Assembly (NCBI GenBank): GCA_964399195.1
Contig: CAYNPY010000008.1
Span: 2,260-66,259 of the forward strand
Reading direction: 5' to 3'
Length of the DNA: 64,000 nt
Origin: an uncultured Fibrobacteraceae bacterium
Lineage (GTDB): Bacteria; Krumholzibacteriota; Krumholzibacteriia; LZORAL124-64-63
Positions 13,521 through 45,811 of the stretch are shown in pieces (the first letter of the stretch is position 1; the number at the start of each line of letters is the position of its first letter). The position numbers were made by a program, and so were the translations under genes. The notes under the pieces are model-generated. The model searched no databases, was not told where the DNA came from, and was given only the letters and a program-made list of their open reading frames with translations.

Positions 13521-15148
13521 TGCGCCCGCCGCTGCGCACACCCGGCGCGGCGTCGACGCTGCTGCTGGCGACCGTGATCCTGGCGACTCTGGCCACCGCC
13601 CTGCCCACGGCCGCGCAGTGCATCCTCGCCAACCCCAGCTTCGAATTGCTGGGCTCCGGCGGCGCCACGTTCGGCGGCTGGAACCAGTTCGGGCGCGTCG
13701 GCTCGACCACCATCGCCGACCACGGCGGCCGCGCGGCCCGCCTGCTGGGACCCAACCTGGGCGGCTGGGACGTGTCGGGCGTCTGGCAGGCGCGCACCTG
13801 CGCGCCGGGGCAGTCGTGGGCCATCACCGGGCACGTGCGGCACCCCTCCTGGAAGCCGCTCAGCGGCGACTGCGCGGCCATCGTCAACGTCGAGTGGCGC
13901 GACGCCGGCGACAACCTCATCAGCTACGAGTCCTTCGCGGTCGCCGGCCCCGCCTCCCCGACGGACCAGTGGCTCGCCTTCGCGCTGACCAGCCCCGGCG
14001 CGCCGGCCGGCGCGGCCACCGCCCGCCTGGTGCTGGGCCTGCTGCAGGCGCCCGGCGCGCCGGAGCCGGAGGCCTGGTTCGACCAGGTCACCTTCGACAG
14101 CGCCACGCCGCCCACGCTCGACCAACTGCAGTGGAACGACTTCCCCGGCGGCACCACCCTGCAGTTCAGCGGTCGCACCTGGCGCGTGAAGGGCCCCGGC
14201 TGGTACGGCCCGGGCGACAACTACTTCAGCAACCTCAGCGACCGCGTCTGGGTCGACGCCGGCGGCAATCTGCACCTGACGGTCAAGCGCTACGGCAGCA
14301 CCTGGAACTGCACCGAGGTGGTGACCCAGGAGGCGCTCGGGTACGGCGATTACATCGTGACGACCGTCGGGCGCCTGGATCTGCTGGACCCGCAGGTCGT
14401 GCTGGGCCTGTTCCTCTGGGAGTACGGCCCCTGCTGGAGCGACGGCTACCTGTGGTGGAACCCGTACAACGAGGTCGACATCGAATACAGCCGCTGGGGC
14501 AACCCGGCGCAGGACATCGGGCAGTTCGTGGCGCAGCCGTACGACTACCCGGGCAACCTCTCGCGCTTCGCCGCCGTGTTCGGCGTCGGCGAACAGGTCA
14601 GCCACGCCATGCGCTGGTCGCGCAACAAGGTCGAGTACCGCGTCTGGCGCGGCGGCCCCGCCGACGAGTCGCCCGGCACGCTGATCGCCACCTGGACCTA
14701 CAGCGGCCCGCACGTGCCGCGCCCCGAGTCGCCGCGCCTGCACCTGAACCTGTGGAAGCTGGGCGGCACGCCGGCCGCGAACCAGGAAGTGGTCATCAGC
14801 GGCTTCCGCTTCTATCCCCTGGGCGCGGTTGCCGCCGCCGAGGACCCCGCGCGTCCGCTGCCCGCCGCCCCGCCCGCCCGCCTGCTGGGCGTGGCGCCCA
14901 ACCCGTTCAACCCGCGCGTCACGGTGCGCTTCAGCACTGCGCACCCGCTGGAGGCGCGGCTCGAGATCTACGATCTGGCCGGGAGGCTGGTGCGCGCGCT
15001 GGCAGCCGGCGCCTTCGCCGCCGGCGAGCACGCCGCCGTGTGGGACGGGCGCGACGACGCCGGGCGCGACGCTCCGTCGGGCGTATACCTGGTGCAGCTG
15101 CGCGGGAACGGGTTCGCGGAGACTGTGGAAGCGACGCTGGTCAGATAG
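13520..15148 (+). CDS. Secreted CBM-like + GH16-like (ConA-like glucanase) protein with FlgD/T9SS-like C-terminal domain
   Basis: ATG 13520 overlaps the upstream stop (TGATG). Signal peptide ends ...ALPTAAQ. N-terminal ANPSFELLG...WFDQVTF resembles a CenC-type CBM. EVDIEY fits GH16 ExDxE. The CTD starts LLGVAPNPFNPRVTVRF and ends VEATLVR. Confidence 0.8.
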   Translation: MRPPLRTPGAASTLLLATVILATLATALPTAAQCILANPSFELLGSGGATFGGWNQFGRVGSTTIADHGGRAARLLGPNLGGWDVSGVWQARTCAPGQSWAITGHVRHPSWKPLSGDCAAIVNVEWRDAGDNLISYESFAVAGPASPTDQWLAFALTSPGAPAGAATARLVLGLLQAPGAPEPEAWFDQVTFDSATPPTLDQLQWNDFPGGTTLQFSGRTWRVKGPGWYGPGDNYFSNLSDRVWVDAGGNLHLTVKRYGSTWNCTEVVTQEALGYGDYIVTTVGRLDLLDPQVVLGLFLWEYGPCWSDGYLWWNPYNEVDIEYSRWGNPAQDIGQFVAQPYDYPGNLSRFAAVFGVGEQVSHAMRWSRNKVEYRVWRGGPADESPGTLIATWTYSGPHVPRPESPRLHLNLWKLGGTPAANQEVVISGFRFYPLGAVAAAEDPARPLPAAPPARLLGVAPNPFNPRVTVRFSTAHPLEARLEIYDLAGRLVRALAAGAFAAGEHAAVWDGRDDAGRDAPSGVYLVQLRGNGFAETVEATLVR

Positions 15149-15278
15149 ATCGCCTCCCGCGTGCCTCCGCTGCGCGCTTCCGCTATTGCCCCGCCGCCTT
15201 CTCCTCCGTAGTCTCAACAATCCCACCACGCATCGCGCCGACAGCCCTGATGACGAGCGCTGCCGCAAGACCGGGGGC

Positions 15279-18200
15279 ATGGTCATGAAGCGGACCTCGA
15301 TCTCGTTCCTCTGCCTGCAGATCCTTCTGGCCGCCGCCGGCGGCACGTGCCGCGCCGGCGCCTCGGGCGAGCCGCCCGCGCCATGGCGTGAGCCGGCGGA
15401 GCTGATCGCGTCGGGACGATTCGCGGCCGCCGACACGCTGGTGCAGCGGATCCTCGCGCAGGCGATCGAGGCGAACGACATCGACAACTGGACGCGCGCG
15501 CTGATCGAGCGGCGCACCCTGGGCACCGTGCTGGGGGCGCCAGAGACGGCGATCCGCCGGCTGCGCGCGACGCCATGGCCGGACGACGACCTGTCGCGGG
15601 CCGTGCTGGAACTGCACTACGCACAGAGCCTGGTCGAGTACCTGCGCCTTCACGCTTACGAGCTGCGGTCGCGCCAGCGCGTCGTGGCAAGCGATTCGCT
15701 GGTGCTCGAGACCTGGGATCACGCCCGCCTCGTGCGCGAGATCGACCGGGCGCTGCTGCGGGTCTGGCAGCGCCGCGAGGCGTTGGGCCGCCTCGCCCCG
15801 GAGGCCTGGCACGGATACATCGAGGCCAACACCTACCCCGACGGGATCCGTAGCACGTTGCGGGACGTCGTCACCTACCGCTGGGCCAGGCAACTTTCCG
15901 ACACCTCGCTCTGGTCGCCGGAGGCGTCCGAGGAGGCGCGCCGACTGGACCTGGAGGAATTGCTGGCTCTGGCGCGTGCCGACACCGCCGGCATCGCCGC
16001 GGCCATGGCCGACACCACGACGCATCCGCTGCGGCGACTCGGCCTGCTGCTGGCCGACCTGCGCGCCTGGCACACGGCCGGCGGCCGCGCCGGCGGCGCG
16101 CTGGAAGCGGAGTTGGCGTATCTGCGCAGCCTGCGGACGGCGGTGGACCGGCCCGCCATCCGGCGCCGGATGCGGGAGCATCTGGAGGGCATCCTGGCGA
16201 ACGTCGACCCGACCGAACCGTGGTGGTCGCAGGGCCAGGCGCAGCTCGCGGAATTCCTGGTCCGCGAAGAGCGACCCGACGGCCACCTCCTGGCCCGCGC
16301 CGCCTGCGCCCGTGGCGCCGCGCGCCATCCCGAGAGCATCGGCGGTCGCTTCTGCGCCTCGCTGCTCGAGCAGATCGAGCACCCCGAATGGCGTCTCGAG
16401 GCCATGGGCGCCGACGCCCCCGGGCGGCGCACCATTGCGATCATCCACCGCAACCTGCCGCGCCTGTACTTCCGGGCCTGGCGCCACGATCCCGGTGAGG
16501 ACTGGCCGCAGTCGACGCCGTGGCTCAATCCGAAGGACCTCGACAGGCACATCGACAGGCACGCGCCGGACCTGGCCTGGGAAGTGGCGCTGCCGCCGAC
16601 GCCCGACTACCGCGACCATCGGTCCTGGACCGGGCTGCCACCCTGTGCGCCCGGAACGTACGCGGTGGTCGCCTCGACGGGCCCCGGCTTCAAGGGCGGC
16701 AGCGACCGGATGATCGTCCAGGAGATTCTGGTGAGCAATCTGGTCGTGACGGCGCTGCCGTTGGAAGGCGGGCTGGACGTTCTCGTGCGTGACGCCGACA
16801 GCGGCCTGCCCGTCGAAGGGGCGACCGTCATGGCGGCCGGCAGCGGCGCGGCGGCGGCCGACGGCCAGCGCCTCACCGCCCTCACGGGGGCGGATGGGAG
16901 CGCGCGGCTCGGCGGAGAGATCGAGGGCGGCCTGCAGCTGCGCGTGTCCCACGAGGGACACCTGGCCCGCCTGTACCACGTCTGGCGGCCAGGCGCGTTG
17001 ACGGCGACGCCGAGCCTGCGGTCATTCGTCTACACCGACCGCGCCGCCTATCGGCCCGGCCAGACCGTGCACTGGAAGGTCGTGACCTACGCCACCGCGG
17101 AGCGGCTCATGGGCATGCACGCTGCGTCCGGCGAGCCGGTCACGGTCCGGCTGCGCGACGCCAACGGGGAAGTGGTCGCCGTGGCGAGGGACACGACCAA
17201 CGACTTCGGCTCGGCCTCGGGCTCGTTCGCGCTGCCGAAGGACAGGCTGCTCGGGCAGTGGTTCATCGCCGCCGAACCTCAGGGCGGCGCCCACATCCGG
17301 GTCGAGGAATACAAGCGCCCGACCTTCGACGTCACGCTGCCGGATCCGGCAGCCGCGCCGCAGCCGGGACGGCCCGCGCGACTGGAGGGCCTCGCCCGCT
17401 ACCTGCACGGACAGCCGGTGTCCGGCGGGCGCGTGCAATGGAGCCTGCGCCGCAATACGCAGGTGTGGCGGGGCTGGGACGGGCACGCGGCCGGCGGAGG
17501 CGCCGTGTTCGCGTCCGGCTCCGGTATCACCGGCGAAGACGGCTCCTTTGCCGCGGAGTTTGTGCCCGGGGAGATGCCCGCAGCCGACGACGGCCAGGCG
17601 CGCCTCGACAGCTACCACCTCCATGTCGACGTGACCGATCCCGGCGGCGAGACCCGCGGTGCCGATCTGCACTTCCGGATCGGCGCGGTCGAGCGCCTGG
17701 CTGCTTTCGAACCGCACGGCGCCCTGCTGGCCGCCGGGTGCGCCGACACGTTCACGGTCGCCTTGACCGATCTCAACCGCGTGCCGCGCGCAGGTGACGG
17801 ACGTTGGCGGCTCATGTCCCTGGTGGCGCCGGGCGCCGCGCGCCTGCCGGGGGATCTGCCCGGAAGCGGGTTGCTGCGGCCGGACGCCTTCTGCGTCACC
17901 GAGGGCGACACGCTGGCGCCGCGCTGGGATGCGGCGCCGCCCTGGCTAACCGCGGTGGGGACCTGGGCCGAGGGCGACACACTCGCCGCCGGCGCGGCGG
18001 TGCATGGCGACGATGGCCTGGCACGGATCGTCCTTCGTCCGGTGGTCAGCGGCGCCTGCCGACTGATCTACGATACGGCGGACGAGCAGGGCCGCCCCGT
18101 GAGCGCGAGCCGCCAGGTGTACGTCGCCGCGAGCGCGGGAGCCGCCGGAGAGCCGTCCGCCCTGCCGCTGCTGCTGGAATCCTCTGCCGAACAGGCGGCA

Positions 18201-21200
18201 GTGGGCGATACCGTGCGCTTCGTCGTCGCGTCGGGCCTGGCCGGGGCGCCGGTCCACGCGCGACTGCTGGTCGGTGAACGCCTGTGGCGCAGCTGGTTCG
18301 TCGACCCCGACAGCGCTGTGATCGAGATCCCGGTCACCGCGCCGATGCACGAGGGACTTACCCTGCAGGCCTGCGTGGTACGCGACCACCAGCTCGTCAG
18401 CGAGATGCGCCACGTGCGCGTGCCCTGGACCGAGAAGCGCTTGTCGGTGGCCCTCACCTCGTTTCGCGATCACCTGAGACCGGGCGAGGAGTCTTCGTTC
18501 CGGGTCGAGGTTCACGGCGCGGACCCCCGAACAGCGGCCGCCGAGGTGCTGGCGCTGATGTACGACCGCAGCCTCGACGCCGTGGCACCGCTGCTGTTGC
18601 CGGACCCGCTGACCGGCCTGGCCTTCAGCCGGCACGCGCGGACTCCGTACGCCACTGCCGGCGAACGCGCCCGCGGCTGGCATCGCCGCCCGCTGCGGCG
18701 TCCGCCCCGCTCGGAAGGCCTGCCCGACCTGGGGCCGGACTTCCTGCGGTGGTTCCCCGGCACGCGGCTGGACCACCAGCTGAACGAACGCGGCCAACTG
18801 CGGCTGACCGGCGTCGATCCGGCCCTGGCCCGGGACCTGGCGGCCCAGGGCATCCCGGTAGCCCAGCCGTTCGTCGTCCGCGGCGAGGAATACATGGTCG
18901 AGATCAAGTCGGCCGTGACCGAGCACACGGTTCGCGGCGAGACGTTCGAGAAGTACGCCATCGATTCCGTGGAGGATGCCCTGTCGAAACAGGCCGGCGT
19001 CGTCTACCGAGCCGGCGAGCTCTACGTGCGGGGCGGACGCAGCGGCGAGGACCTGATGAGCATCACCTCGTCGCTGGCCTGGGACGAAGTGTCGGCGCGG
19101 ACCGACTTCGCGGAGACGGGCTTCTTCCTGCCGCACGTCGAACTGGACGAGGCGGGCGGGGCGGTAATCGAGTTCCGCGCGCCCGAGTCGGCGACCGAAT
19201 GGAAGGTCCTGGTGGCCGCGCTCACGCGCGACCTGCGCGCGGGGCAGGCCGAACGCCGGCTGCGCACCGTCAAGGACCTGCTGGCGCGCCCGATCCTGCC
19301 GCGCTTCCTGCGCGAGGGCGACACCGCCGACCTGCGCGTTCTGGTCAGCAACGCCGGCGACGCCGTGCTTGCCGGCGAAGTGCGCCTCGAGATCGAGGAT
19401 CCGGCCGACGGCCGCGACCTCGGCCCCGCTTTCGGCCTGGAGCGGCCCGTGCGCCGCTTCCGCGTCGAGCCCGGCGGCACTGCCACCGTGACCTACGCCG
19501 TGAGGGCACCGACGGGCGCCGGTCCCGCCACCGTGCGCGCGCTGGCCCGCGCCGGCGACCGCGGCGACGGCGAGCAGCATCTGCTGCCCATCCTGCCGGA
19601 GCGCAAGCACCTGCTGCAATCGCGCTTCGTCGCCCTGGCCGACAGTTCGCGACGCGAGCTGCACTTCGCGTCCATGGCCGAGCCCGATCCCACGCGCCAC
19701 GACGAGCAGCTGACCGTGACGATCGACCAGCGCCTGTTGCCCGCGCTGCTGCGGGCGCTGCCCTACCTGGTGGAGTACCCGTATGAGAGCACCGACCTGA
19801 TCGTCGATCGCTTCCTGTGCAGCGGCATCATGTCGCGGCTGTTCGCCGGCCGGCCGCAGTTGGCTTCGCTTGCGGCCGGACTGGCCGATCGCGACACGCC
19901 GCTGCCGGCGTGGGACGCGAGCGATCCCAACCGCTGGCTCCGCTTCGAGGAGACGCCGTGGCTGCACCAGGCCGCGGGCCGGCCCACGGAATTGGCCGTC
20001 GTGCACCTGTTGGCCCCGGATGTGGCGAGCCGCCAGCGATACCTGTCGCTGTTCCGTCTGCGCGAACTGCAGCGCGGCGACGGCGGGTTCCCCTGGCACC
20101 CCGGCGGACCGTCATCGACGCACGTGACCCTGCAGGTCCTGCTGGCGCTGGCGCGGGCCGCCGAGTTCGGTCTCGGGGCGCCGGACGACGTGGTGGCGAA
20201 CGCGTGGCGGTATCTGGGCGATCAGTGCGGAGGCGATGGCCATCGTGACCCGTGGGGAAGGCTGGGACCGGACCTGTCGACGCTGCTCGGGCATCTTCTG
20301 TCGATCTGGCCGGAGACGGCCTGGCGTGGGTCAGGACTCACCGCCGGCGATCGCGACGCGCTCATCGAACAGGCCTGGAGCCGCCGCTTCGCCCTGCCGC
20401 GCCTGCTCAAGGCGTATCTGGCACTGACGCTCCACCGCGCGGGCCGCCCCGACGATGCCCGCGCATTGTACGAAGCGGTGCTGGACGGCGCTCGTATCGA
20501 CCCCGACCTGGGCGTCTATTGGCAGCCCGAGGACCGTTCGTGGCTCTGGCACAACGACCGCGTGGGATCGCACGCCGTCTTCCTGCGCGCGGCCACCGAG
20601 ATCCGCCCCGACGACCCGCGACGCCGCGGCCTGGCGCAGTGGCTGCTGCTGAATCGCCAACTGAGCCACTGGGGCTCGACGCGCGCGACCGCCGAGGCGA
20701 TCTACGCCCTGGCGCGCTACCTCGACGCCGAAGGTACCCTCGACGCGCGCGGCATCGTGCGCGTCGAGCTGGGAGCCCAGGAGCGACGCTTCGTCGCCGA
20801 TCCCGACGAGCCCCTTTCCGGGTCCGACGTGATCGTGCTGGAGGGCGACCGGATCGATCCGGCGACGATGCACACCATCGTCGTGCAACGCGAATCGCCG
20901 GGCCTGGCTTTTGCCACGGCCACGTGGACCTTCAGCACCGAGAGGATGCCGACGACCGGCGACGGCGATCTACTTGCCGTTTCCCGTGAGCTGTTCCGTC
21001 GCGAGTTGAAGGACGGACGCCCGCTGCTGACGCCGCTGCGCGACGGCGAGAGGGTGAAGATCGGCGACGAGATCGAAGTGCGGCTCACGGTCACCGCCCG
21101 GCAGTCCGCGGAGTACGTGCACATCCGCGACCCGCGCGCGGCCGGCTGCGAACCGGTCGACATGCGCTCAGGTCCGCGCTGGAACGAAGGGATCTACCAT

Positions 21201-21392
21201 CACCAGGAGGTCCGCGACGCGGCGACCAGCTTCTTCGTCCCGTGGCTGCCGGCCGGGCGCATCACGCTGGCCTACCGCGTGCGCGCGGCCGTGAGCGGCG
21301 TATTCGCCGCCCAACCGGCGGTGGTCCAGTCGGTGTACGCGCCGGAGTTCGGCGCCCATTCGGCGGGGAACGTCGTGAGGATCAGGGACTGA
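15279..21392 (+). CDS. Alpha-2-macroglobulin family protein (large extracellular helical + MG domains), thioester motif absent
   Basis: Nested start MVMKRTSISFLCLQILLAAAGG. MG-domain signature RVEEYKRPTFDV. The thioester-domain context reads LVEYPYESTDL where A2Ms have ...PYGCxEQ. Confidence 0.85.
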   Translation: MVMKRTSISFLCLQILLAAAGGTCRAGASGEPPAPWREPAELIASGRFAAADTLVQRILAQAIEANDIDNWTRALIERRTLGTVLGAPETAIRRLRATPWPDDDLSRAVLELHYAQSLVEYLRLHAYELRSRQRVVASDSLVLETWDHARLVREIDRALLRVWQRREALGRLAPEAWHGYIEANTYPDGIRSTLRDVVTYRWARQLSDTSLWSPEASEEARRLDLEELLALARADTAGIAAAMADTTTHPLRRLGLLLADLRAWHTAGGRAGGALEAELAYLRSLRTAVDRPAIRRRMREHLEGILANVDPTEPWWSQGQAQLAEFLVREERPDGHLLARAACARGAARHPESIGGRFCASLLEQIEHPEWRLEAMGADAPGRRTIAIIHRNLPRLYFRAWRHDPGEDWPQSTPWLNPKDLDRHIDRHAPDLAWEVALPPTPDYRDHRSWTGLPPCAPGTYAVVASTGPGFKGGSDRMIVQEILVSNLVVTALPLEGGLDVLVRDADSGLPVEGATVMAAGSGAAAADGQRLTALTGADGSARLGGEIEGGLQLRVSHEGHLARLYHVWRPGALTATPSLRSFVYTDRAAYRPGQTVHWKVVTYATAERLMGMHAASGEPVTVRLRDANGEVVAVARDTTNDFGSASGSFALPKDRLLGQWFIAAEPQGGAHIRVEEYKRPTFDVTLPDPAAAPQPGRPARLEGLARYLHGQPVSGGRVQWSLRRNTQVWRGWDGHAAGGGAVFASGSGITGEDGSFAAEFVPGEMPAADDGQARLDSYHLHVDVTDPGGETRGADLHFRIGAVERLAAFEPHGALLAAGCADTFTVALTDLNRVPRAGDGRWRLMSLVAPGAARLPGDLPGSGLLRPDAFCVTEGDTLAPRWDAAPPWLTAVGTWAEGDTLAAGAAVHGDDGLARIVLRPVVSGACRLIYDTADEQGRPVSASRQVYVAASAGAAGEPSALPLLLESSAEQAAVGDTVRFVVASGLAGAPVHARLLVGERLWRSWFVDPDSAVIEIPVTAPMHEGLTLQACVVRDHQLVSEMRHVRVPWTEKRLSVALTSFRDHLRPGEESSFRVEVHGADPRTAAAEVLALMYDRSLDAVAPLLLPDPLTGLAFSRHARTPYATAGERARGWHRRPLRRPPRSEGLPDLGPDFLRWFPGTRLDHQLNERGQLRLTGVDPALARDLAAQGIPVAQPFVVRGEEYMVEIKSAVTEHTVRGETFEKYAIDSVEDALSKQAGVVYRAGELYVRGGRSGEDLMSITSSLAWDEVSARTDFAETGFFLPHVELDEAGGAVIEFRAPESATEWKVLVAALTRDLRAGQAERRLRTVKDLLARPILPRFLREGDTADLRVLVSNAGDAVLAGEVRLEIEDPADGRDLGPAFGLERPVRRFRVEPGGTATVTYAVRAPTGAGPATVRALARAGDRGDGEQHLLPILPERKHLLQSRFVALADSSRRELHFASMAEPDPTRHDEQLTVTIDQRLLPALLRALPYLVEYPYESTDLIVDRFLCSGIMSRLFAGRPQLASLAAGLADRDTPLPAWDASDPNRWLRFEETPWLHQAAGRPTELAVVHLLAPDVASRQRYLSLFRLRELQRGDGGFPWHPGGPSSTHVTLQVLLALARAAEFGLGAPDDVVANAWRYLGDQCGGDGHRDPWGRLGPDLSTLLGHLLSIWPETAWRGSGLTAGDRDALIEQAWSRRFALPRLLKAYLALTLHRAGRPDDARALYEAVLDGARIDPDLGVYWQPEDRSWLWHNDRVGSHAVFLRAATEIRPDDPRRRGLAQWLLLNRQLSHWGSTRATAEAIYALARYLDAEGTLDARGIVRVELGAQERRFVADPDEPLSGSDVIVLEGDRIDPATMHTIVVQRESPGLAFATATWTFSTERMPTTGDGDLLAVSRELFRRELKDGRPLLTPLRDGERVKIGDEIEVRLTVTARQSAEYVHIRDPRAAGCEPVDMRSGPRWNEGIYHHQEVRDAATSFFVPWLPAGRITLAYRVRAAVSGVFAAQPAVVQSVYAPEFGAHSAGNVVRIRD

Positions 21393-24019: not shown

Positions 24020-25489
24020 ATGCACGCCGCCCAGCACGTCCGCACAGCGCCGGAAGACCGCATCGGCTTCGGCCAGCGTCTGGCCTACGGCACCGGGGCC
24101 TTCGTCAACAACCTCCTGGGCGCCGCCAGCGGCGGCATGATGATCGTGCTGAACCTGGGCTTCGGGATGAACCCGGCCCTGGTCGGCCTGCTGGGCGCGA
24201 TCCCCCGCTTCACCGACGCGCTCACCGATCCCATCATGGGCTTCATCAGCGACGGCACGCGCTCGCGCTGGGGGCGCCGGCGGCCGTGGATCTTCCTGGG
24301 CGCGCTCTTGACCGCCGTCCTGTTCGCCCTGCTCTGGCAGCTGCCGCGCGGGCAGAGCGAGATGTTCTACTTCTGGTACTTCATGATCGGGTCGATCCTC
24401 TTCTACATCGGCTACACGATGTTCGCCACGCCATGGGTGGCGCTCGGCTACGAGCTGACGCCGGACTACCACGAGCGCACGCGCCTGATGGGCACGCAGA
24501 ACTTCATCGGGCAGACCGCCTTCATGGTCTCGCCCTGGTTCCTGTGGATCATGACCTACAAGGGGTTCTTCCCCGACCAGATCGCGGGCGCCTCCGGACT
24601 GGCGATCATCCTGGCCGTGGTCGTGGCCGGGCTGGGCATCCTGCCGGCGATCTTCCTGCGCGAGCGAATGGCGGCGGTCGCCGCGGCCGAGTCCGCCGAA
24701 CGCCGCGAGACGGCCGCGAAGGGCGGCGCCTTCCGGCGCAACGTCGTCGAGTTCCTGCGCGGCTTCCGCATCACCATGTCTTCCGGCCCGTTCCTGAAGC
24801 TGAGCGCCGCCACGTTCCTGCTCTTCAACGGCTTCATGCTCATCTCGTCGTTCCAGAGCTACGTCATCATCTACTACGTCTGCGGCGGCGACCAGGAGCT
24901 GGGCGCGCGCTGGGCGGGGCTCGCGGGCACCGTCGGCGGCTTCGCCAACTTCGCCGTGGTGGCGTTCGTGGCCTGGCTGGGCACGCGCATCGGCAAGCGG
25001 CACGCGTTCTTCGTCTCGACCAGCGTGGCGATGGTCGGCTACGCGCTCAAGTGGGTCTGCTACAACCCGCAGGTGCCGTGGCTGGTGGTGCTGCCGGCGC
25101 CGCTGCTGGCGTTCAGCCTGGGCGGGCTGTTCACGCTGGTGCCGTCGATGATCGCCGACGTCGTCGACGCCGACGAACTGCAGACGCACCAGCGGCGCGA
25201 GGGCATGTTCGGGTCCATCTTCTGGTTCATGGTCAAGCTGGGCATGTCCGCGGCGCTGGCCGGCGGCGGTTACATGCTGAACGCTTCCGGCTTCGACGTG
25301 GCGCTGGGCGGCGCTCAGGCGCCGGGCACGATCCTGCTGCTGCGGCTGTTCGACGCCGGCGTGCCCCTGCTCTGCTCGGCGTTGGCCATCTGGGCCGTGG
25401 CGACGTTCCCGATCACCGAGGCGCGGGCGTACGAGGTGCGCCGCGAGCTGGAGCAGCGGCGCGGTCGCGCCGGCCCGGTGCAGGCGTGA
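24020..25489 (+). CDS. MFS transporter, glycoside-pentoside-hexuronide (GPH):cation symporter family
   Basis: GPH signature DALTDPIMGFISDGTRSRWGRRRPW. About 12 hydrophobic segments. Confidence 0.9.
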   Translation: MHAAQHVRTAPEDRIGFGQRLAYGTGAFVNNLLGAASGGMMIVLNLGFGMNPALVGLLGAIPRFTDALTDPIMGFISDGTRSRWGRRRPWIFLGALLTAVLFALLWQLPRGQSEMFYFWYFMIGSILFYIGYTMFATPWVALGYELTPDYHERTRLMGTQNFIGQTAFMVSPWFLWIMTYKGFFPDQIAGASGLAIILAVVVAGLGILPAIFLRERMAAVAAAESAERRETAAKGGAFRRNVVEFLRGFRITMSSGPFLKLSAATFLLFNGFMLISSFQSYVIIYYVCGGDQELGARWAGLAGTVGGFANFAVVAFVAWLGTRIGKRHAFFVSTSVAMVGYALKWVCYNPQVPWLVVLPAPLLAFSLGGLFTLVPSMIADVVDADELQTHQRREGMFGSIFWFMVKLGMSAALAGGGYMLNASGFDVALGGAQAPGTILLLRLFDAGVPLLCSALAIWAVATFPITEARAYEVRRELEQRRGRAGPVQA

Positions 25490-26466
25490 GGCGCGGGCGG
25501 GCCGCAGGGCCGCTGGCGGCGCTCGCGCTCGGCGCCGCGCTGCTCCTGGCCGCATCGGCCGCGGCCGCCGTCGCGCCCGGCGAGCGGCGCCCCTTCCCGC
25601 CCGCCGGCCTGCCCACGCCCAATGCGATCTGCTACGGCCCCCACCGCGACGGCCAGCGCCCCGGCGCCGTCGACCCGGACGCCGCCCAGCTGCGCGAGGA
25701 CGTTCGCCTGCTGCGCGACCACTGGCCCCTGCTGCGCATCTACGACGCCGGCGGTTTCGCCCGCACGCTGCTGGACGTGCTGCGCGAGGAGAGCGGCCGG
25801 CCGCTGGTCGTGCTGGGCGCGTGGATCGCGCCCGACGACAGCGTCGGCAACCGCGCCGAGATCGAGGCCGCCGTCGCGCTGGCCGCCGAATATCCGGACC
25901 TGGTGGCCGCCGTCTGCGTCGGCAACGAGACGCAGGTCTCGTGGTCGGCCCACCGCTGCGACCCGTCCGTCCTGCTGGCCGCGCTGCGGGAAGTGCGCGC
26001 CCGCGTGGCCGTGCCGGTGACGACCGCCGACGACTTCAACTTCTGGAACAAGCCCGAGAGCGCCGCCGTGGCGGCCGAGGTCGACTTCATCCTGCTGCAC
26101 GCGCATCCGCTGTGGAACGGCAAGCAACTGGACGAGGCCCTGCCCTGGCTGCAGGCGCAACTGGCCGACGCGCGGGCGCGGCACGCAGGCGTGCCGGTGT
26201 TCATCGGCGAGACGGGCTGGGCTACGCGCCGCCATACCGCGGGCGAGCAGGCCACCCTGATGAAGGGCGTCCTCGGCGAGCTGGAGCAGGCGCGCTTCCA
26301 CGCCGACCTGCGCGCCTGGGCCGACAGCGCCGGCGTAACCGCTTTCTTCTTCGAGGCCTTCGACGAGAACTGGAAGGGCGGCGACCACCCCGACGAGGTG
26401 GAAAAGCACTGGGGGCTGTGGCGGGCCGACCGGTCGCCCAAGCAGGGGGCGCCGCGCCGCGACTAG
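25486..26466 (+). CDS. Glycoside hydrolase family 17 beta-1,3-glucanase/transglycosylase, secreted
   Basis: GTG 25486 overlaps the MFS stop (GTGA). Signal peptide ...LLLAASAAAAVAP. GH17 motifs VCVGNETQVSW, FIGETGWAT and FFEAFDENWKG. The gene is nested at the end of track ORF 22498..26466. Confidence 0.85.
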   Translation: MRRGRAAGPLAALALGAALLLAASAAAAVAPGERRPFPPAGLPTPNAICYGPHRDGQRPGAVDPDAAQLREDVRLLRDHWPLLRIYDAGGFARTLLDVLREESGRPLVVLGAWIAPDDSVGNRAEIEAAVALAAEYPDLVAAVCVGNETQVSWSAHRCDPSVLLAALREVRARVAVPVTTADDFNFWNKPESAAVAAEVDFILLHAHPLWNGKQLDEALPWLQAQLADARARHAGVPVFIGETGWATRRHTAGEQATLMKGVLGELEQARFHADLRAWADSAGVTAFFFEAFDENWKGGDHPDEVEKHWGLWRADRSPKQGAPRRD

Positions 26467-26485: not shown

Positions 26486-27322
26486 TCAAGGCAGGAAGGC
26501 GTCCGCCCAGTCGGCGGGCAGGCGTCCCGCGGGCGCCACCAGCGCCATCGCCAGGTCGCCGTCGATCCACACCCGCGCCTCGCGCTCCCAGCCTTGGCCG
26601 CTGAACACCCGCCATCCCTTCACCTGCGACGACGGGGCGCCCTCCAGATCGAGGTTCTGCGCCGGCACCGCGAACAGGACGAGGCGCTGGCCGTCGGCGA
26701 TCTCGTACGAGGCGAGCGCCGACAGGCGGCCGACCGTGTGCCAGACCCGGCCGCCCTGCAAGCGATAGCCGGCGCGTGGCGCCGGCAACTCGATGCGGAA
26801 GCTGAGCGACTCGCCGAGCCAATCGGACAGATCCCGCTGGTCCGTGATGAACACCTCGAGCGGACGCCCGATCCTCTCCAGCAGATAGTGGTCGTGGGTG
26901 ACGTCCTCGATGTACATGCCGACGTTGCGAGGCACCTCCGCGGACAGCCGCGTCGGCAGCAGGTCGGCGTAGCGGCCGAGAACCACGCCCAGCGTCAGTG
27001 AAGCCGCCAGCGCGAGCGGCAACGCTATCCGGCGCGGCGCAGACCAGCGGCGGGTTCCGGACCGCTCCTCGCCGGCTCCCGGGCGCGAAACGTCCCGCGG
27101 CGCACCCTCCAGCTCCGCCAGCATCCTGGCGCGCAGGGGCGCCGGCAGCGGAGCCGCCAGCAAAGGCAGTTCGCGCAATCGCGCCGCAAGGTCGGCCGCG
27201 CCACGACGCAAGGCGGCGCAATCCGGGCACTCGTCGGCATGGGCCCGCGTCGGTTCGTCCCACGTGATACCGTGCGGGTCCAGTTCGACCGCGCGGCAAT
27301 GCTGCCGTTCATCCAGGCTCAA
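26486..27322 (-). CDS. Anti-sigma factor (zf-HC2-like N-terminus, single TM, extracytoplasmic domain)
   Basis: TTG start overlaps the sigma-factor stop (TTGA). H..C...CPDC motif, TM segment IALPLALAASLTLGVVLG, and a C-terminal ~150-aa domain. Confidence 0.75.
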   Translation of the reverse strand: MSLDERQHCRAVELDPHGITWDEPTRAHADECPDCAALRRGAADLAARLRELPLLAAPLPAPLRARMLAELEGAPRDVSRPGAGEERSGTRRWSAPRRIALPLALAASLTLGVVLGRYADLLPTRLSAEVPRNVGMYIEDVTHDHYLLERIGRPLEVFITDQRDLSDWLGESLSFRIELPAPRAGYRLQGGRVWHTVGRLSALASYEIADGQRLVLFAVPAQNLDLEGAPSSQVKGWRVFSGQGWEREARVWIDGDLAMALVAPAGRLPADWADAFLP

Positions 27323-28023
27323 TCCGCGCTTCCCCCGGCAGCCGCGTCGCGCCTGCGGCGCGCGGCGCGCAGCCGCTCATACAGATTCCGTCGCGCCCGG
27401 TGCAGGCCCGAGCGAAGCGTCCCGGGCGCGATGTCCAGACCCGCCGCCGCCTCGTCGTAGCTCCAGCCCTCGACGTCAACCAGCAGCACTGAGGCCCGCC
27501 AGCGCGGCGGCAGCGCGCGCAGCGCCGCCTCCACCTCGTCGTCGAAGGCCTCGCGGATGACGGCCGGCTCCCAATCCGGCGCGGCCTCCGACAGTTCCGC
27601 CTCGGCGGCCAGGTCGTCGTCCCAGCCGGATTCGCCTCGACGCGCCCGCGCGCGCCAAAGGTCGCGACAGGTGTTGTGCACGATGCGCGCCAGCCAGCTG
27701 CGCCCATTGCTGCCCGGTCGCAAGCCGCCAAAGCCGCGGACGGCCTTCAGGAACGCCTCCTGCGCAACGTCGTCGGCCAGGTCCGCGTCACCGCACACGG
27801 CGCGGGCCATGCGGTACAGAACGTCCAGATGCGGCTCGATCTCCGCGGCGAAGCGACGGCGCTCGGCGGGCGACAGGCGAAGCGTCAACGCGTCGGGTCC
27901 TCGCGTCAGGTGTCCGGGACTCCCCCCGCCCCGATGATAACGCCTGACCAGCGTCAACCCAACCCCGATCGATGCGGCGCGGCCGGGACCCGGAGGCGTC
28001 CGAGAGGATCGTGCACCTGCCAA
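27319..28023 (-). CDS. ECF (group 4) sigma-70 family RNA polymerase sigma factor
   Basis: Region 2: LYRMARAVCGDADLADDVAQEAFLKAV. Region 4: WSYDEAAAGLDIAPGTLRSGLHRARRNL. The start is uncertain: the track start is a TTG at 28023, and another TTG is at 27957. Confidence 0.85.
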   Translation of the reverse strand: MAGARSSRTPPGPGRAASIGVGLTLVRRYHRGGGSPGHLTRGPDALTLRLSPAERRRFAAEIEPHLDVLYRMARAVCGDADLADDVAQEAFLKAVRGFGGLRPGSNGRSWLARIVHNTCRDLWRARARRGESGWDDDLAAEAELSEAAPDWEPAVIREAFDDEVEAALRALPPRWRASVLLVDVEGWSYDEAAAGLDIAPGTLRSGLHRARRNLYERLRAARRRRDAAAGGSAD

Positions 28024-28066
28024 GGCAGGGGATCCCGGCCGTTGCCGACCCGCTGGGCGGCATCCG

Positions 28067-28681
28067 CTAGCGGTACTCCGCCTTCAGCTCCGACCAGCTC
28101 CGCTGCTCCGTCGAAACGACGTCTTCCTGCGGCTCGACCTTGCCATCCCAGCGTTCCGAGTAGCCCGGCAGCACCTGCGTCGCGGCGCGCGAGACGGCCG
28201 TCAGCAGCGGCCAGCCGGTGCGGTCGGCGGGCGCCAGCAGATCCAGCAGCGACCCGCCCGACCAGTCGACGCTCCCGGCGCCGCTGCCGAGGCTGCTGGT
28301 GACCATCGTGCGCTGGAAGACGCCGAGGGTTCCGGCCAGCACGAGCGTGCCGTCGGCGAAAGTCGTTGGGCTCGCCCAATCGGCGGGCGTGGCCGCGTCC
28401 TCGTAGATCGCGACGGCGCCCCCTGCGAACAGGCTCGTGGCGCCGAGGGAGTCGAGCGTCAGGCCCGTGATCACCAGGGTGTACTGGTGGTTCGCGAAAT
28501 CGAGCGGCAGCGGCGCCGCCACGGCGTCACCGTTGACGATCTTGCCGTACACCGTCGCCGTGCCGCCAACCCCTTCGGGCATGACGACCTGGGCGTCGAA
28601 ATCGAACATCTGCGTGGCGAGCGCGGCCGTCGAGAGTATGGCCTGCCCGAGCAGAATCAGCGTGATCATTGTCTTCATCAT
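28067..28681 (-). CDS. Small secreted protein, C-terminal-tail family (ends ...QRSWSELKAEYR), paralog of 28736..29422
   Basis: ATGATG start after GGAGGAAGGA. Signal peptide MMKTMITLILLGQAILSTAALA. It shares ...TFADGTLVLAGTLGVF... with ...TFNDGDLVFSGVFNGF... in its neighbour. Confidence 0.85.
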   Translation of the reverse strand: MMKTMITLILLGQAILSTAALATQMFDFDAQVVMPEGVGGTATVYGKIVNGDAVAAPLPLDFANHQYTLVITGLTLDSLGATSLFAGGAVAIYEDAATPADWASPTTFADGTLVLAGTLGVFQRTMVTSSLGSGAGSVDWSGGSLLDLLAPADRTGWPLLTAVSRAATQVLPGYSERWDGKVEPQEDVVSTEQRSWSELKAEYR

Positions 28682-28735
28682 CCTGGTCCTTCCTCCACGT
28701 GGAAGTGTGTTCTGCCGGCGGCGCGGTGCGCGGCC

Positions 28736-29422
28736 CTACCGGCCAGGGTTGTACAGCTGCTTGAGCGAACCCCAGTTGACGTTCTCGACGGCGACGGCGG
28801 ACTCCACCTCGAGCACCCCGTCGACCTGCAGGTCGTAGCCGTCGGGGATCTGCGCGCCTGTGGACGCATTGAAGGTGCCGGCGAACGTGTAGGCGCAGTT
28901 CGAGCAGGGTCCGGCCAGGGCGCTGCCGCCGGTGCCGTCCACGTAGCCCTCGAAGACGCCGATGCCCGACGGCAGCAGCGTCAGCGCGAAGCCGTTGAAC
29001 ACGCCGGAAAAGACGAGATCGCCGTCGTTGAACGTGGCGGGCACCGTCGCGTTGACCGGATCCACGCCCCAGTCGTGGTTGCGCAGGTTGCCTGCGTGCA
29101 GGGCCAGCACGCCGCCGGCGTACGTGACCGTCGTGGCGCCGGACACCGGGTCGAAGACCGCACCCAGGCTGGACAGGCCGTCGATGAAGAGCGTTGCTTC
29201 CTGCGCGCCGAGATCCACGTCGAAGAGCGGGTCGATCTGCGTGACGACCGCCGCCAGGGCCAGTTGGTCGCCGGGCTGGCTCGAGGCCAGACCGCCGGTC
29301 TCCCAGCCGAAGCCGACGAAGTCGACCTCGGCGGCACGCGCGGGCGCGACGGCAGCCAACAGGGCCAGGATCAGGGCGCCGAGGCCCGAAGCGACGGCGG
29401 GACGAATCGTTCGAAACGACAT
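28736..29422 (-). CDS. Small secreted protein, C-terminal-tail family (ends ...NVNWGSLKQLYNPGR)
   Basis: Nested ATG 29422 after GAGGGGG. Signal peptide ...LALLAAVAPARA. Confidence 0.85.
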   Translation of the reverse strand: MSFRTIRPAVASGLGALILALLAAVAPARAAEVDFVGFGWETGGLASSQPGDQLALAAVVTQIDPLFDVDLGAQEATLFIDGLSSLGAVFDPVSGATTVTYAGGVLALHAGNLRNHDWGVDPVNATVPATFNDGDLVFSGVFNGFALTLLPSGIGVFEGYVDGTGGSALAGPCSNCAYTFAGTFNASTGAQIPDGYDLQVDGVLEVESAVAVENVNWGSLKQLYNPGR

Positions 29423-29740
29423 GCGGGCTACCCCCTCGTTGATTGCTGCTTCCGGATTGCCCCGGAGAAGCCGGCGCCGCCCGCTCGAACCTGATCTGCG
29501 GACGGCGCGTTCGCATGTCGGGACAACGGAAACGGGCGCCGCGAAAGTTCCCGGTCGGCAAAAAAAGGACGCGTCGTTCCGCGGCCATGACGGCAACCCA
29601 TTGTCGAAAAACAGGATAATGAGTCGATCGGCAGCTGCGGAAACCCGCTGGTCTGCGCGCCGTAGAAGCCCTATTGTGCCCCGGGGGCTTTCCCGGGCTC
29701 CCGCCGACTTCCGGCCCGATCAACCGACAGGAGCAACACG

Positions 29741-30937
29741 ATGCGCAATCCTCCGCTTGCCGGCGCCCTGGCGGCGCTGGCGCTGGGCCTGCTCGCCGGC
29801 GTGGCCGTGGCCGCCGACGGCGGCCCCGCCACCCTCGACGAGGCGCTGGCCCTGGCCCGCCAGCAGGACAAGGTCCTGATCATCGACTTCTACACGGATT
29901 GGTGACCCAGCTGCAAGGTGTTCGCCCGTGAGGCGAGCAGCAGCGACGTCATCAAGTCCGCCCTGGCCGAGGTCGTGTTCCTGAAGGTCGACTGCGAGAA
30001 GGGCGAAGGCCCGGCCGTCGCCAAGAAGTACGACGTCCGCGGCTACCCCACCTACTACGCCGTGAACGCCGACGGTCAGCCCATCGAGCGCTGGATCGGC
30101 TACGACGGCCCCGAGGCGTTCGCGCGCATGGTGGCCGCGGCGCGCCGCGACACGCGCACGCTGGCGCAGAAGCGCGAGGCCTTCGCCGCGGCGCCCACGG
30201 CCGCGCTGGCCGTCTCGCTGGCCAACGACGTGGCCACCGGCTACGACTGGGCCGGCGCGGTGAAGCACTTCCGCCAGGCCCGCGATCTGGATCCCGCCGG
30301 CGCCGACGACTACACGCGGAACATCTTCACCTACATGTTCTACGCCGACGAGGGCGGCTTCAGCTTCGAGGAGATGAAGCAGGAGGGCGACCGCGTGCTG
30401 GCCGCGGCCGGCACCACGGACGTCGACCGCGTGGAGCTGTCGGCGATGATGCTGCAGCTGGCCCGCCGGCACGAGCGGCCCGCCGACGGCGTGCCCTACC
30501 TGGAGGCCGGGCTGGCCGCGGCCGCCGGCCTGCCGGACGACTCGCCGGCCGCGCGCACCGTGCGCGGCCTGAAGGTCGACCACGCGCTGCTGGTGGAGAA
30601 GGACGTCGCCAAGGCGGTCGAGCTGCGCAAGGCCATGCTGCCGGAGAAATGGGAGCAGGAGCCGCGCCGCCTCAACCAGTTCGCCTGGTGGTGCCTGGAG
30701 AACGGCGTGAACCTCGAGGAGGCCGAGGCGCTGGCCATGCGGGCGGCGGAGCTGGCGGAGGAGCCGAGCGACCGCGCCGGCTACCTGGACACCGCGGCCG
30801 AGATCAGCCTCAAGCGCGGCGACGGCGAGCAGGCGATCGCCCGCATCAAGCAGGCGATCGAGCTGGATCCGGAGCGCGAGTACTTCAAGGAGCAGCTGGC
30901 GAAGTTCGAGGCGGCGCTGGCGCAGAAGAAGGGCTGA
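29741..30937 (+). CDS. Secreted thioredoxin-fold + TPR-like protein with an in-frame TGA (29903-29905) at the first Cys of WCxxC; candidate selenoprotein (UxxC)
   Basis: ATG 29741 follows AGGAG. Signal peptide MRNPPLAGALAALALGLLAGVAVAA. The frame reads ...KVLIIDFYTDW-TGA-PSCKVFAREA... and continues into track ORF 29918..30937 (YDVRGYPTYY follows, then TPR-like helices). The alternative reading is a pseudogene or sequencing error. Confidence 0.65.
29910..29944 (+). promoter_or_regulatory. SECIS-like stem-loop starting 5 nt after the in-frame TGA
   Basis: Lower stem GCTGC (29910-14) / GCAGC (29940-44). Upper stem GTTCGCC (29920-26) / GGCGAGC (29932-38), including one G-U pair. Apical loop CGUGA (29927-31) contains GU. 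Confidence 0.5.
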
Positions 30938-43897: not shown

Positions 43898-45637
43898 TCA
43901 GCGCACGAGCGAGACGCGAACCGTCGAGGCGCCCTGCGGCAGCGAGAGGCGGCACAGGTAGGCGCCGCTGGGCGCGGCGCGCCCGGCTTCATCCAGCCCG
44001 TCCCAGACGAACGCCTGCCGGCCCGCCGCCAGCGCGCCCGCGTGCAGCACGCGCACGCGCCGGCCCGCCAGATCGTGGACGGCCAGCTCGCCGGCGGCCG
44101 CGGCCGCCAGCGTGAAGCTCACCGTCACCCGCGGATTGAACGGGTTCGGCGCCGCCGCCAGCGCCGGCAGCGAAGCGGGAGCGACGTCGCCGGCCCCGGC
44201 GACGTAGGCCGGCTGCAGGCCGGCCACGTCCGCCAGCAGTCCGGCGCCGGCGCGCGCGACCTGCACCGACATCGCCGCCGTCGCGGCGATGGCCGCCCAG
44301 GTGTCCGCCGTGCTGTGGTAGGGCGTGTAGTCGTCCCAGTCGTAGTCGATGGCCAGGAACGCCGGGTAGCCCGCCTGCTGGAACGGCACGTGGTCGCTGC
44401 CGAAGCTGTAGTAGTCCTTCTGCCAGCCCAGGTCGGTCAGCGCGTCGACGTTGGCGGCCATCGCCGACATCAGGGTTTCCCACGCGGGCTGGCCCTCGAT
44501 GCGGATCGCGTAGTTGGCGGCGTAGAAGGCCACCATGTCGTGGATGAGCGCGCCGACGATCACCCGCCCGCCGGCCACCGCGTCGTCCACGAAGTACTCG
44601 CTGCCGATCAGCCCGCGCTCCTCGGCGTCGAAGAGCACGAACTGGAGCGAGCGGTCGAAGGTGCGCCCGGCGGCCAGGCGCGCCAGCTCCATCACCAGGG
44701 CCGTGCCGGAGGCGTTGTCGTCGGCGCCCGGCGCCAGCGAGGTCGGCGTCTGCGACGTGGAATCGTAGTGCCCGCCGACGACGAAGTATTCGCCGGGCGT
44801 CACGGCGCCCGGCAGCGTCGCGACGACGTTCCGGCAGGCGACGCGGTTGTAGGTGAACGACTGGAACGCCACGTCGTAGCCCCACGCGGCCAGCTGCGCC
44901 GCCAGGGCGTCGGCGACGAACGTCTTGTCGGCCGTGCTGTAGTAGCGCGTGGCGACGGTGCGCGTCTGGCCGGCGTGCGTCAGCGGCAGCGAGCCGCTCA
45001 GCCGGCGGATCGTCGTGAAGATGGAATCCGCGGCGACGCCGGCGGCGAACGCCGTCTTGAGGGCCAGATCCTTCGCGGCGTGGGGCGCGGGCTTCGTCGC
45101 CGCCGCCGCGACGCGCTCGCGCAGACCGTCCCAGCCGGCCGGCGGCGCGTCCAGGCGCAACCGCTGGCGGCCGGCTCCCAGCGCGGCGAAGGCCTCGGCC
45201 TTGGCCGGCGGCACCTCGACGACCCAGGCCCCGTCCAGCGCCAGGTGCACGCGGCCGACCGCGGCCAGGTCCGCCGTCGCGACCGGGCGGCCGTGCGCGC
45301 GGCCCTTCGCGCGCACCAGGAACCACTCCCCGTCCGGCCAGGCCGGCGCCAGCGGCTCGCCGAAGCGGTGCTGATCGGCGGGCGCGACGCGGTCGGCCAC
45401 CAGCACGCCGCCGGGCAGCTCCCAGACCAGCGTGCCGAGGTCCCCCGCCGCGGCGCGCGCGGCAGCGGCCTGCGGTCCGGTGACGAAGGCCAGACCGGAC
45501 GCGCGGGCGGCCGGCGCCGAGGCCAGCAGAGCCAGGACCGGCAGCGCCAGCACCAGCAGGATCGGCAGCGGGCGGCTGAGCGGAACGCGGAGAGCGGGCC
45601 GGGCGCGGCGGCCGGCGGGCGAAGGCAGGGGCGACAT
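43898..45637 (-). CDS. M28 family metallopeptidase with FlgD/T9SS-like C-terminal domain
   Basis: GADDNASGTALVMELAR and FDAEERGLIGSEYF. The CTD starts LAAAPNPFNPRVTVSF and ends VRVSLVR. The start is uncertain (ATG 45637 or an upstream in-frame ATG). Confidence 0.85.
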   Translation of the reverse strand: MSPLPSPAGRRARPALRVPLSRPLPILLVLALPVLALLASAPAARASGLAFVTGPQAAAARAAAGDLGTLVWELPGGVLVADRVAPADQHRFGEPLAPAWPDGEWFLVRAKGRAHGRPVATADLAAVGRVHLALDGAWVVEVPPAKAEAFAALGAGRQRLRLDAPPAGWDGLRERVAAAATKPAPHAAKDLALKTAFAAGVAADSIFTTIRRLSGSLPLTHAGQTRTVATRYYSTADKTFVADALAAQLAAWGYDVAFQSFTYNRVACRNVVATLPGAVTPGEYFVVGGHYDSTSQTPTSLAPGADDNASGTALVMELARLAAGRTFDRSLQFVLFDAEERGLIGSEYFVDDAVAGGRVIVGALIHDMVAFYAANYAIRIEGQPAWETLMSAMAANVDALTDLGWQKDYYSFGSDHVPFQQAGYPAFLAIDYDWDDYTPYHSTADTWAAIAATAAMSVQVARAGAGLLADVAGLQPAYVAGAGDVAPASLPALAAAPNPFNPRVTVSFTLAAAAAGELAVHDLAGRRVRVLHAGALAAGRQAFVWDGLDEAGRAAPSGAYLCRLSLPQGASTVRVSLVR

Positions 45638-45811
45638 GCCGGCACTCCCATGCGGGCCGGCGCCGGCTGGCGCCATCCCGGGTTGAAGACCATCGTTGCG
45701 GGGCATCCGGATGATCATAGCACGCCGCCCGCGGGCGGCGCCAGCGCGCCGGGGATCTCCCCCGCGCGCCTGCCGCGCCCGGCGGCGGACCACGTGACCT
45801 GGGAGCGCCGC

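Follow-up and report, generated by a model that had tools for sequence, protein, structure and literature searches.

An in-frame UGA as the probable selenocysteine codon of an exported thioredoxin-like protein with a TPR-like tail in Krumholzibacteriota

We analysed a 64,000-nucleotide stretch of DNA (hereafter the window) from an uncultured bacterium of the Krumholzibacteriota (assembly GCA_964399195.1, contig CAYNPY010000008.1, positions 2,260 to 66,259), in which a reading frame at positions 29741-30937 is interrupted by one TGA codon. An earlier note on this DNA had proposed that the codon marks a UxxC selenoprotein. Sequence comparison indicates that the in-frame "stop" almost certainly encodes selenocysteine (Sec) as an active-site residue of an exported, thioredoxin-like redox protein. 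We put at about 0.9 the probability that 29741-30937 is a single gene for an exported selenoprotein. The data presented below establish the structure of the gene, the alternation of Sec and Cys across phyla, a covarying selenocysteine insertion sequence (SECIS) specific to the Sec forms and a two-domain fold.

Translation from the ATG at 29741 gives MRNPPLAGALAALALGLLAGVAVAADGG...KVLIIDFYTDW, then TGA (29903-29905), then PSCKVFARE, and the next stop is reached only at TGA 30935-30937. In the list of open reading frames (ORFs) of the window, this frame appears as two separate ORFs, 29741..29905 (54 residues) and 29918..30937 (339 residues, GTG start). The sequence confirms what the earlier note had described here, namely an AGGAG ribosome-binding site, a signal peptide in the frame of ATG 29741, a single in-frame TGA and an uninterrupted run into the second ORF. 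The G+C content at third codon positions (GC3) is 0.96 in the 50 codons before TGA 29903 and also 0.96 in the 50 codons after it. Among all TGA triplets in the six frames of the 64-kb window, it is the only one with coding-type GC3 on both sides. The overall G+C content of the window is 73%. The gene and its start signal are as follows.

29729-29733, + strand: Shine-Dalgarno-like AGGAG, 7 nt before ATG 29741, read off the sequence.
29741-30937, + strand: full coding sequence of the selenoprotein, with 398 codons before the stop and Sec as codon 55, from the translation and the ORF list.

As had been pointed out previously, TGA is an ordinary stop in neighbouring genes (867-869, 13518-13520 and 25487-25489). 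It closes most of the GC3-supported frames of the window, so that the genetic code is standard and a global recoding of TGA is ruled out. The base call itself had also been questioned. The exact 339-residue product is found on 13 contigs, and the four places shown correspond to four different sequencing runs. Over 5-11 kb, the assemblies from these runs match the window at 99.9% identity, and all four have TGA at the same position; the TGA is thus not a base-calling error. The split into ORFs of 54 and 339 residues is also present in the gene calls of the four independent assemblies.

Species-representative genomes were scanned for relatives of the protein. Out of 128 loci encoding a relative, 80 were kept (numbered with the prefix L), and the upstream frame was read in each of them. 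In the alignment of orthologues, a check suggested by the earlier note, 77 of the 80 loci could be classified: the aligned codon is TGA in 64 and TGC or TGT in 13, and the hairpin described below co-varies. The three remaining loci are cut off at a contig end, frameshifted or, in L074, have Ser. The carriers belong to Krumholzibacteriota (Krumholzibacteriia), Zixibacteria, Eisenbacteria, Gemmatimonadota and Acidobacteriota. Sulfidibacter corallicola (NZ_CP071793) is among the genomes with a Cys form. Upstream of the codon, every orthologue read encodes in frame both a signal peptide and the motif D-F-(Y/F)-x-(D/E)-W. Orthologues starting downstream of the motif, an outcome that the earlier note had envisaged, were not found, as leader and motif lie in frame upstream. 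The leader contains a lipobox Cys in some orthologues (L051, L064, L057, L073).

29903-29905, + strand: Sec codon UGA (U55), first position of the redox motif, from the 64 TGA and 13 TGC/TGT aligned and from the four assemblies.
29903-29914, + strand: redox motif U-P-S-C (U55 to C58); the Cys forms read CGPC, CVYC, CSWC and similar.

The TGA therefore stands, as had been proposed, at the first Cys of a thioredoxin WCxxC motif: 13 of the 77 orthologues have Cys there, and Pfam thioredoxin domains span the codon. The usual comparative hallmark of a selenoprotein is a stop that alternates only with Cys at a catalytic redox position, with coding conservation on either side of it. A protein search retrieved about 90 homologues, down to 36% identity. 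Nearly all of them were called from a start just after the TGA, which leaves them at about 340 residues and at 85% coverage of the query. P0085 departs from this pattern: it is a full-length Cys form of 394 residues (WCGPC) that reads DFFADWCGPCKAF.

In L074, the Ser occupies the Sec/Cys position about 20 codons upstream of locus position 10001, giving LEAEW-S-YSC-K and thus an SxxC motif. Escherichia coli CnoX/YbbN has an SxxC motif and no Sec.

Downstream of the codon, the 48 nt from the TGA onward form an ungapped alignment of 65 sequences. RNAalifold finds a single helix in it, pairing columns 18-24 with columns 30-36, which correspond to 29920-29926 (GUUCGCC) and 29932-29938 (GGCGAGC) in the window. 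There, one extra pair, U29919-A29939, is present, and the loop begins 21 nt past the UGA. A two-tier hairpin had been drawn at 29910-29944. The window sequence does fold in this way, but the lower tier is not conserved: in the alignment, 92.7% of the cells are paired in the upper helix versus 51% in the lower tier (29910-29914 with 29940-29944). The minimum free energy (MFE) of 29903-29960 is -24.7 kcal/mol (z = -3.05; 3 of 200 shuffles are as stable), and that of the core hairpin averages -10.0 kcal/mol over the 64 genes.

29920-29938, + strand: conserved SECIS hairpin, with a 7-bp stem (29920-29926/29932-29938) and the loop CGUGA (29927-29931), from RNAalifold and pair counts.
29910-29944, + strand: extended two-tier hairpin, with the lower tier GCUGC (29910-29914)/GCAGC (29940-29944), in the window and close relatives only.

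The upper helix shows changes on both sides in five of eight pairs. Pair 24-30 is C-G in 57 sequences, U-A in 8 and broken in none. None of 500 shuffles matched the observed pairing or covariation, and the covariation score is 0.272 in the true register versus at most 0.157 in slid registers. Sec and Cys forms differ clearly: 6 or 7 of the 7 core pairs are present in every one of the 64 Sec forms, versus a mean of 3.4 of 7 in the 13 Cys forms, in which L055, with TGC and an intact hairpin, is an outlier. Across phyla, the SECIS sequence is strongly conserved (TTCGCC-CGTGA-GGCG).

The loop also bears a mark of selection. In the 64 Sec forms it is always xG[U/G]Gx (CGUGA in 33, CGUGC in 20, CGGGA in 4, CGGGC in 3, GGUGC in 3 and CGGGU in 1). 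The Arg codon that it contains is CGT in 53 of 64 genes (83%), CGG in 8 and CGC in none, the other three having GGT (Gly). Elsewhere in the same 64 genes, CGT makes up 9% of the Arg codons and CGC 53%. In the genes of the window, CGT accounts for 4% of the Arg codons, and the loop CGT is the only one among the 28 Arg codons of the gene. On codon counts, protein conservation does not explain this bias, while selection at the RNA level can.

According to the published model of the bacterial SECIS (bSECIS), the loop has 3-9 nt, the upper stem 4-16 bp, the distance from UGA to loop is 16-37 nt and the MFE is -7.5 kcal/mol or lower, with a G in position 1 or 2 of the loop and G or U next to it on the 3' side (PMC13188914, Fig. 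2). The window hairpin agrees with all of these rules, with a 5-nt loop, 7-8 bp, C-G-U, 21 nt and -24.7 kcal/mol (29903-29960). Agreement with the published rules, compensatory changes and the contrast between intact hairpins in Sec forms and 3.4 of 7 pairs in Cys forms bear out the earlier view of the hairpin as a bacterial SECIS. More broadly, Sec/Cys alternation in orthologues, the hairpin and the codon selection support the UxxC selenoprotein reading. A search of the whole window against Rfam at gathering thresholds gave no match; to our knowledge, Rfam has no general bacterial SECIS family, so this null says little.

Three other explanations of the TGA were considered. If it were a true stop, the gene would be broken or split and only the 339-residue ORF from GTG 29918 would be made, as a cytoplasmic TPR protein (TPR, tetratricopeptide repeat). 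Such a reading matches current annotations, as public gene calls almost all begin after the TGA, and the GTG at 29918 is usable as a start in the window. It is nevertheless highly improbable. In the 54 codons before the TGA, GC3 is 0.96 and the encoded protein sequence is conserved across five phyla. The downstream ORF on its own would leave the Pfam-matched thioredoxin fold with no strand 1, no active-site motif and no signal peptide. Moreover, many orthologues have no start codon near the TGA, and their calls begin 10-25 residues further in (P0062, P0084, P0086). A pseudogene would not hold one stop at the same codon in 64 species and Cys in 13 others. The idea of a sequencing or assembly artefact, or of a strain-specific mutation of TGC, has a negligible likelihood. 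TGC and TGA do differ by one base, and an isolated case of this kind is found in a cytochrome gene at L036, but the idea is refuted by the presence of TGA in four independent assemblies and 64 species, always with the hairpin.

It is also conceivable that the UGA is read through with an amino acid other than Sec, either by a near-cognate tRNA carrying Cys or Trp or by Cys-tRNA(Sec) under selenium scarcity, the hairpin being a general stimulator. Known Sec systems can place Cys at UGA via tRNA(Sec) when selenium is limiting, and Sec machinery was not seen in the stretches searched (see below). We consider this very unlikely, however, since the hairpin fits SelB-type rules (loop G[G/U], 21 nt spacing, stem length) and the codon alternates only with Cys, which is the classic Sec signature. 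We know of no SelB-independent read-through element of this form in bacteria. Trp insertion would destroy the redox motif.

Several points weigh against a Sec-containing redox protein. Scanning the window for tRNAs revealed only a tRNA-Ala and no tRNA-Sec, and no tRNA-Sec was found in 60 related loci (L001-L060, with flanks of +/-10 kb). Likewise, tblastn with the E. coli SelA, SelB and SelD proteins (from NC_000913) gave no match in the window or in the 80 loci with the same flanks. These searches spanned 64 kb plus about +/-10 kb per genome, that is a few per cent of each genome, so their outcome is uninformative: it is silent rather than negative. The eight U-A pairs at position 24-30 come from genomes with a G+C content of 0.40-0.62, hence base composition contributes to that covariation signal. 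The protein used for structure modelling, P0085, is only 34-36% identical to the window protein. At the loci compared, a search for a conserved operon partner (DsbD or CcdA, for instance) found none. Finally, selenium incorporation is read here from sequence only, and the redox function from fold and motif only.

Other traces of selenium use were also looked for. Pfam annotation of about 40 ORFs of the window revealed no selenium-related gene. A second selenoprotein, which would indirectly prove the Sec trait, was not found in the window; one candidate appeared in the related loci and was rejected. This candidate, at L036:6870-8219 on the - strand, has a TGA at locus position 7091. The corresponding codon is TGC in the orthologues L037, L038 and L039 (CAACH), and there is no shared downstream hairpin. 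The gene encodes a membrane protein with a C-terminal cytochrome c domain and reads ...FEGTCAA-TGA-HARDRVLVGPS, where the TGA replaces the second Cys of the haem-binding CxxCH. Rather than a Sec codon, this TGA most likely reflects an error of assembly or a mutation that inactivates the gene.

The selenoprotein predicted from the full frame is composed of a leader, a thioredoxin-fold domain and a long helical part.

29741-29812, + strand: predicted Sec-type signal peptide, residues 1-24, judged by eye; the orthologues all have an equivalent hydrophobic leader.
29831-30130, + strand: thioredoxin-fold domain of Thioredoxin_7/DsbD-gamma type, residues 31-130, from Pfam, a PDB sequence search and the model of the Cys orthologue.
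30143-30934, + strand: all-helical TPR-like superhelix, residues about 135-398 (about 260 residues), from the model and Foldseek.

The signal peptide, MRNPPLAGALAALALGLLAGVAVA, is followed by ADGG...; it has a positively charged N-terminus, then a hydrophobic core, then a cleavage site of AxA type (AVA before A). The Pfam search was run with Cys written at the TGA. Over residues ~31-130, it gave matches to Thioredoxin_7 (PF13899, 51.8 bits for a cut-off of 27), Thioredoxin (PF00085, 48.0 for 23.5) and Thioredoxin_2 (PF13098, 42.7 for 27). As the three families match the same residues, the thioredoxin domain crosses the stop codon. In this domain, a (D)xEKGEG motif and the GYPT cis-Pro loop are invariant in the family. 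Sequence searches in the PDB retrieved relatives of the thioredoxin domain only, with 2kuc at 1.7e-15 followed by PDI and DsbD-gamma. In the C-terminal part, Pfam TPR families remain below their cut-offs for the window protein (TPR_11, 21.8 vs 26.8; TPR_2, 17.3 vs 27), and precomputed TPR matches exist in many homologues. LNxFAWWC(F/L)EN..NLEEAE and LDTAAE are invariant motifs of this region.

The first of these motifs contains C318, an invariant Cys of the TPR domain. Many relatives have two further Cys (AEIC.ARGNC) that are absent from the window protein.

The structure was modelled with AlphaFold on the natural Cys orthologue P0085, using a family alignment of 45 sequences. The model (predicted local distance difference test, pLDDT, 93; predicted TM-score, pTM, 0.85) shows a disordered leader, a thioredoxin fold and then 13 helices, all of high confidence. 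WCGPC sits between strand 44-49 and helix 54-64. In the PDB, Foldseek found matches for both parts of the model: 2kuc, DsbD-gamma and plant thioredoxin h for the N-terminal one and, for the C-terminal one, designed 8-repeat TPR proteins (E = 2.9e-6, TMt 0.58) as well as the TPR domain of OGT.

On the basis of motif and modelled fold, the protein is most likely a periplasmic thiol-disulfide oxidoreductase. The Cys forms mostly have a thioredoxin-like WCGPC, so a reductase or isomerase role would be likelier than that of an oxidase. We envisage the following pathway. SelB with Sec-tRNA(Sec) would bind the hairpin at 29920-29938 while the ribosome is at UGA 29903, leading to insertion of Sec55. 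The Sec translocon would then export the 398-residue precursor, with cleavage of the signal peptide after about residue 24. Once in the periplasm, U55-x-x-C58 may carry out thiol-disulfide exchange via a selenenylsulfide intermediate, Sec55 attacking disulfides or oxidised thiols of the substrate and Cys58 resolving the selenenylsulfide. By analogy with CnoX and with the Trx7/PDZ selenoprotein, the TPR superhelix might hold client proteins.

Among bacterial selenoproteins, the commonest kind has a thioredoxin fold, a UxxC motif and a SECIS within the coding sequence. A 2026 review lists 119 selenoprotein families and subfamilies, mostly thioredoxin-like. As judged from its sequence, the window protein is a real, unannotated member of this well-known class. 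It has in common with the catalogued proteins the thioredoxin fold, Sec in place of the N-terminal Cys of CxxC, Cys-containing homologues, a presumed redox role and a bSECIS within the coding sequence closely downstream of the UGA. Unlike them, the window family carries an additional TPR superhelix (about 260 residues) at the C-terminus, and its thioredoxin domain is of Thioredoxin_7/DsbD-gamma type. The family may already be included in one of the generic catalogue entries ('thiol:disulfide interchange protein', PF13098), which were compared with it by their descriptions.

Neither the combination of thioredoxin and TPR domains nor PF13899 is named among the selenoprotein catalogue entries in the portions consulted. 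In a 2017 tRNA-Sec survey, the 2026 review and the BSepDB paper, there is no mention of a TPR selenoprotein or of the phyla found here. A search for Krumholzibacteria together with selenocysteine retrieved only one paper, with a passing mention. The suggestion that a secreted architecture of this kind might be unlisted thus holds as far as it could be checked, with no entry in the catalogue portions consulted and no curated model. We tentatively propose, at slightly less than even odds, that these proteins form an uncatalogued family in which an exported Thioredoxin_7 UxxC domain is joined to a TPR superhelix, as a periplasmic Sec-dependent counterpart of the chaperedoxin design.

No selenoprotein model of NCBIfam reaches its cut-off with this protein. 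The best sequence relatives of the thioredoxin domain are the gamma domain of DsbD (PDB 6dnl/1vrs/2fwe) and the rhodanese/DsbD-fusion selenoprotein TsoB, both periplasmic. DsbD (NF001419) scores 58 bits vs 330, over profile positions 464-571, that is its C-terminal thioredoxin part only; with no full-length match, membership in DsbD was rejected. Selenoprotein TsoB (NF045694) scores 43.5 bits vs 805. Unlike DsbD, the window protein has no membrane or alpha domain and would be a soluble thioredoxin with a TPR tail (a lipoprotein in some relatives). The Trx7/PDZ (seleno)protein NF041199 also combines a Thioredoxin_7-type redox head with a protein-binding module and has Sec in its redox motif, but the partner is PDZ and not TPR, and the motif is CxxU and not UxxC. 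It is matched by the Cys orthologue only, with 16.9 bits for a cut-off of 300, and membership was rejected. Apart from this model and TsoB, none of the selenoprotein models gave a match.

The only solved structure with the same order, an N-terminal thioredoxin followed by a C-terminal TPR, is that of the chaperedoxin CnoX/YbbN (PDB 3qdn, Salmonella). CnoX is cytoplasmic and lacks a signal peptide, whereas the window protein has one, and the likeness is architectural only (TMq 0.23, rmsd 22 A, 16% identity). Membership in CnoX/YbbN was therefore rejected. As a functional analogy, a redox head coupled to a client-binding TPR domain is plausible. The closest solved thioredoxin domain is 2kuc, a putative disulphide-isomerase from Bacteroides thetaiotaomicron (E = 1.7e-15 by sequence; TMt 0.73 and 33% identity by structure). 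2kuc and Bacteroidota Trx7 proteins share the (D/E)xEKGEG and GYPT motifs, and P0092 and P0093 also have long helical C-terminal regions. These proteins are Cys forms, and their function is likewise uncharacterised. Identities of P0092, P0093 and P0094 are 21, 20 and 23% to P0085 and 22, 22 and 27% to the window protein.

A quick distance tree (neighbour-joining) of 77 full-length sequences places Krumholzibacteriia in one all-Sec clade, with Cys forms scattered among deeper Sec lineages. The SECIS sequence is common to all Sec forms. Together with the scattering of the Cys forms, this suggests, from the sequences compared, a single origin of Sec followed by several reversions to Cys. Documented changes from Sec to Cys in bacteria are rare, according to the 2026 review. 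L055, the Cys form with an intact hairpin, lies within an all-Sec Zixibacteria clade and adjoins L063, which has TGA. At L055:2717-2764 the codon is TGC and the hairpin is intact (TTTGCC-CGTGA-GGCAAA); at L063:857-904 the codon is TGA. L055 looks like a very recent replacement of Sec by Cys with a relic SECIS.

If the selenoprotein reading is true, Sec is the dominant state of the family, at about 83% of the species sampled. About 90 public clusters, named 'hypothetical protein' or 'TPR repeat protein', are cut by about 59 residues that hold the signal peptide and the active site; without this N-terminal part, the annotations mistake the protein for a cytoplasmic TPR protein. At least 100 genomes would be put right by a family model that includes a Sec exception. 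The family would also be a marker of selenium use among little-known candidate phyla of the FCB (Fibrobacterota-Chlorobiota-Bacteroidota) group, and its carrier phyla go unmentioned in the selenoproteome catalogues that were consulted. It would add one more exported redox selenoprotein to the catalogue. A conserved SECIS, 13 natural Cys controls and one apparent recent reversion would make a clean data set for the requirements of SelB and for Sec/Cys exchange. The understanding of Sec decoding or of the mechanism of thioredoxin-fold enzymes is unchanged by this gene.

The gene appears monocistronic. Its downstream neighbours (MptE-like, phosphodiesterase) are convergent with it, and this synteny is conserved. 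Directly upstream, the block at 26486-29596 on the - strand contains genes for a 278-residue unknown protein, an extracytoplasmic function (ECF) sigma factor (27319-28023), a 204-residue unknown protein and an unknown protein of about 228-286 residues. This ECF block (about 26.4-29.7 kb) is absent from the nearest relatives, L001 and L002, where the equivalent of 25315-26409 abuts the selenoprotein gene. L002 is contig JADJQR010000001.1 (4.7 Mb), from an 86%-identical relative with TGA. The block is probably an insertion of a sigma/anti-sigma module.

Other genes of the window encode, according to Pfam, a ROK kinase, a GH1 enzyme, an alpha-2-macroglobulin, a major facilitator superfamily (MFS) transporter, an ECF sigma factor, phosphodiesterases, an AddAB-like helicase-nuclease and peptidases. 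The alpha-2-macroglobulin gene (14829-21392; about 2,035-2,187 residues with MG2, A2M_BRD, A2M and bMG10 domains) lies about 8 kb upstream; its very large product is another periplasmic protein, with a role in defence or quality control, and is unrelated to the selenoprotein. An FlgD Ig-like domain (PF13860) ends four proteins, one of them an M28 peptidase (8951-9922, 13310-15148, 43898-46363 and 57686-58684). This recurring tail may serve the lineage as a signal for sorting or secretion.

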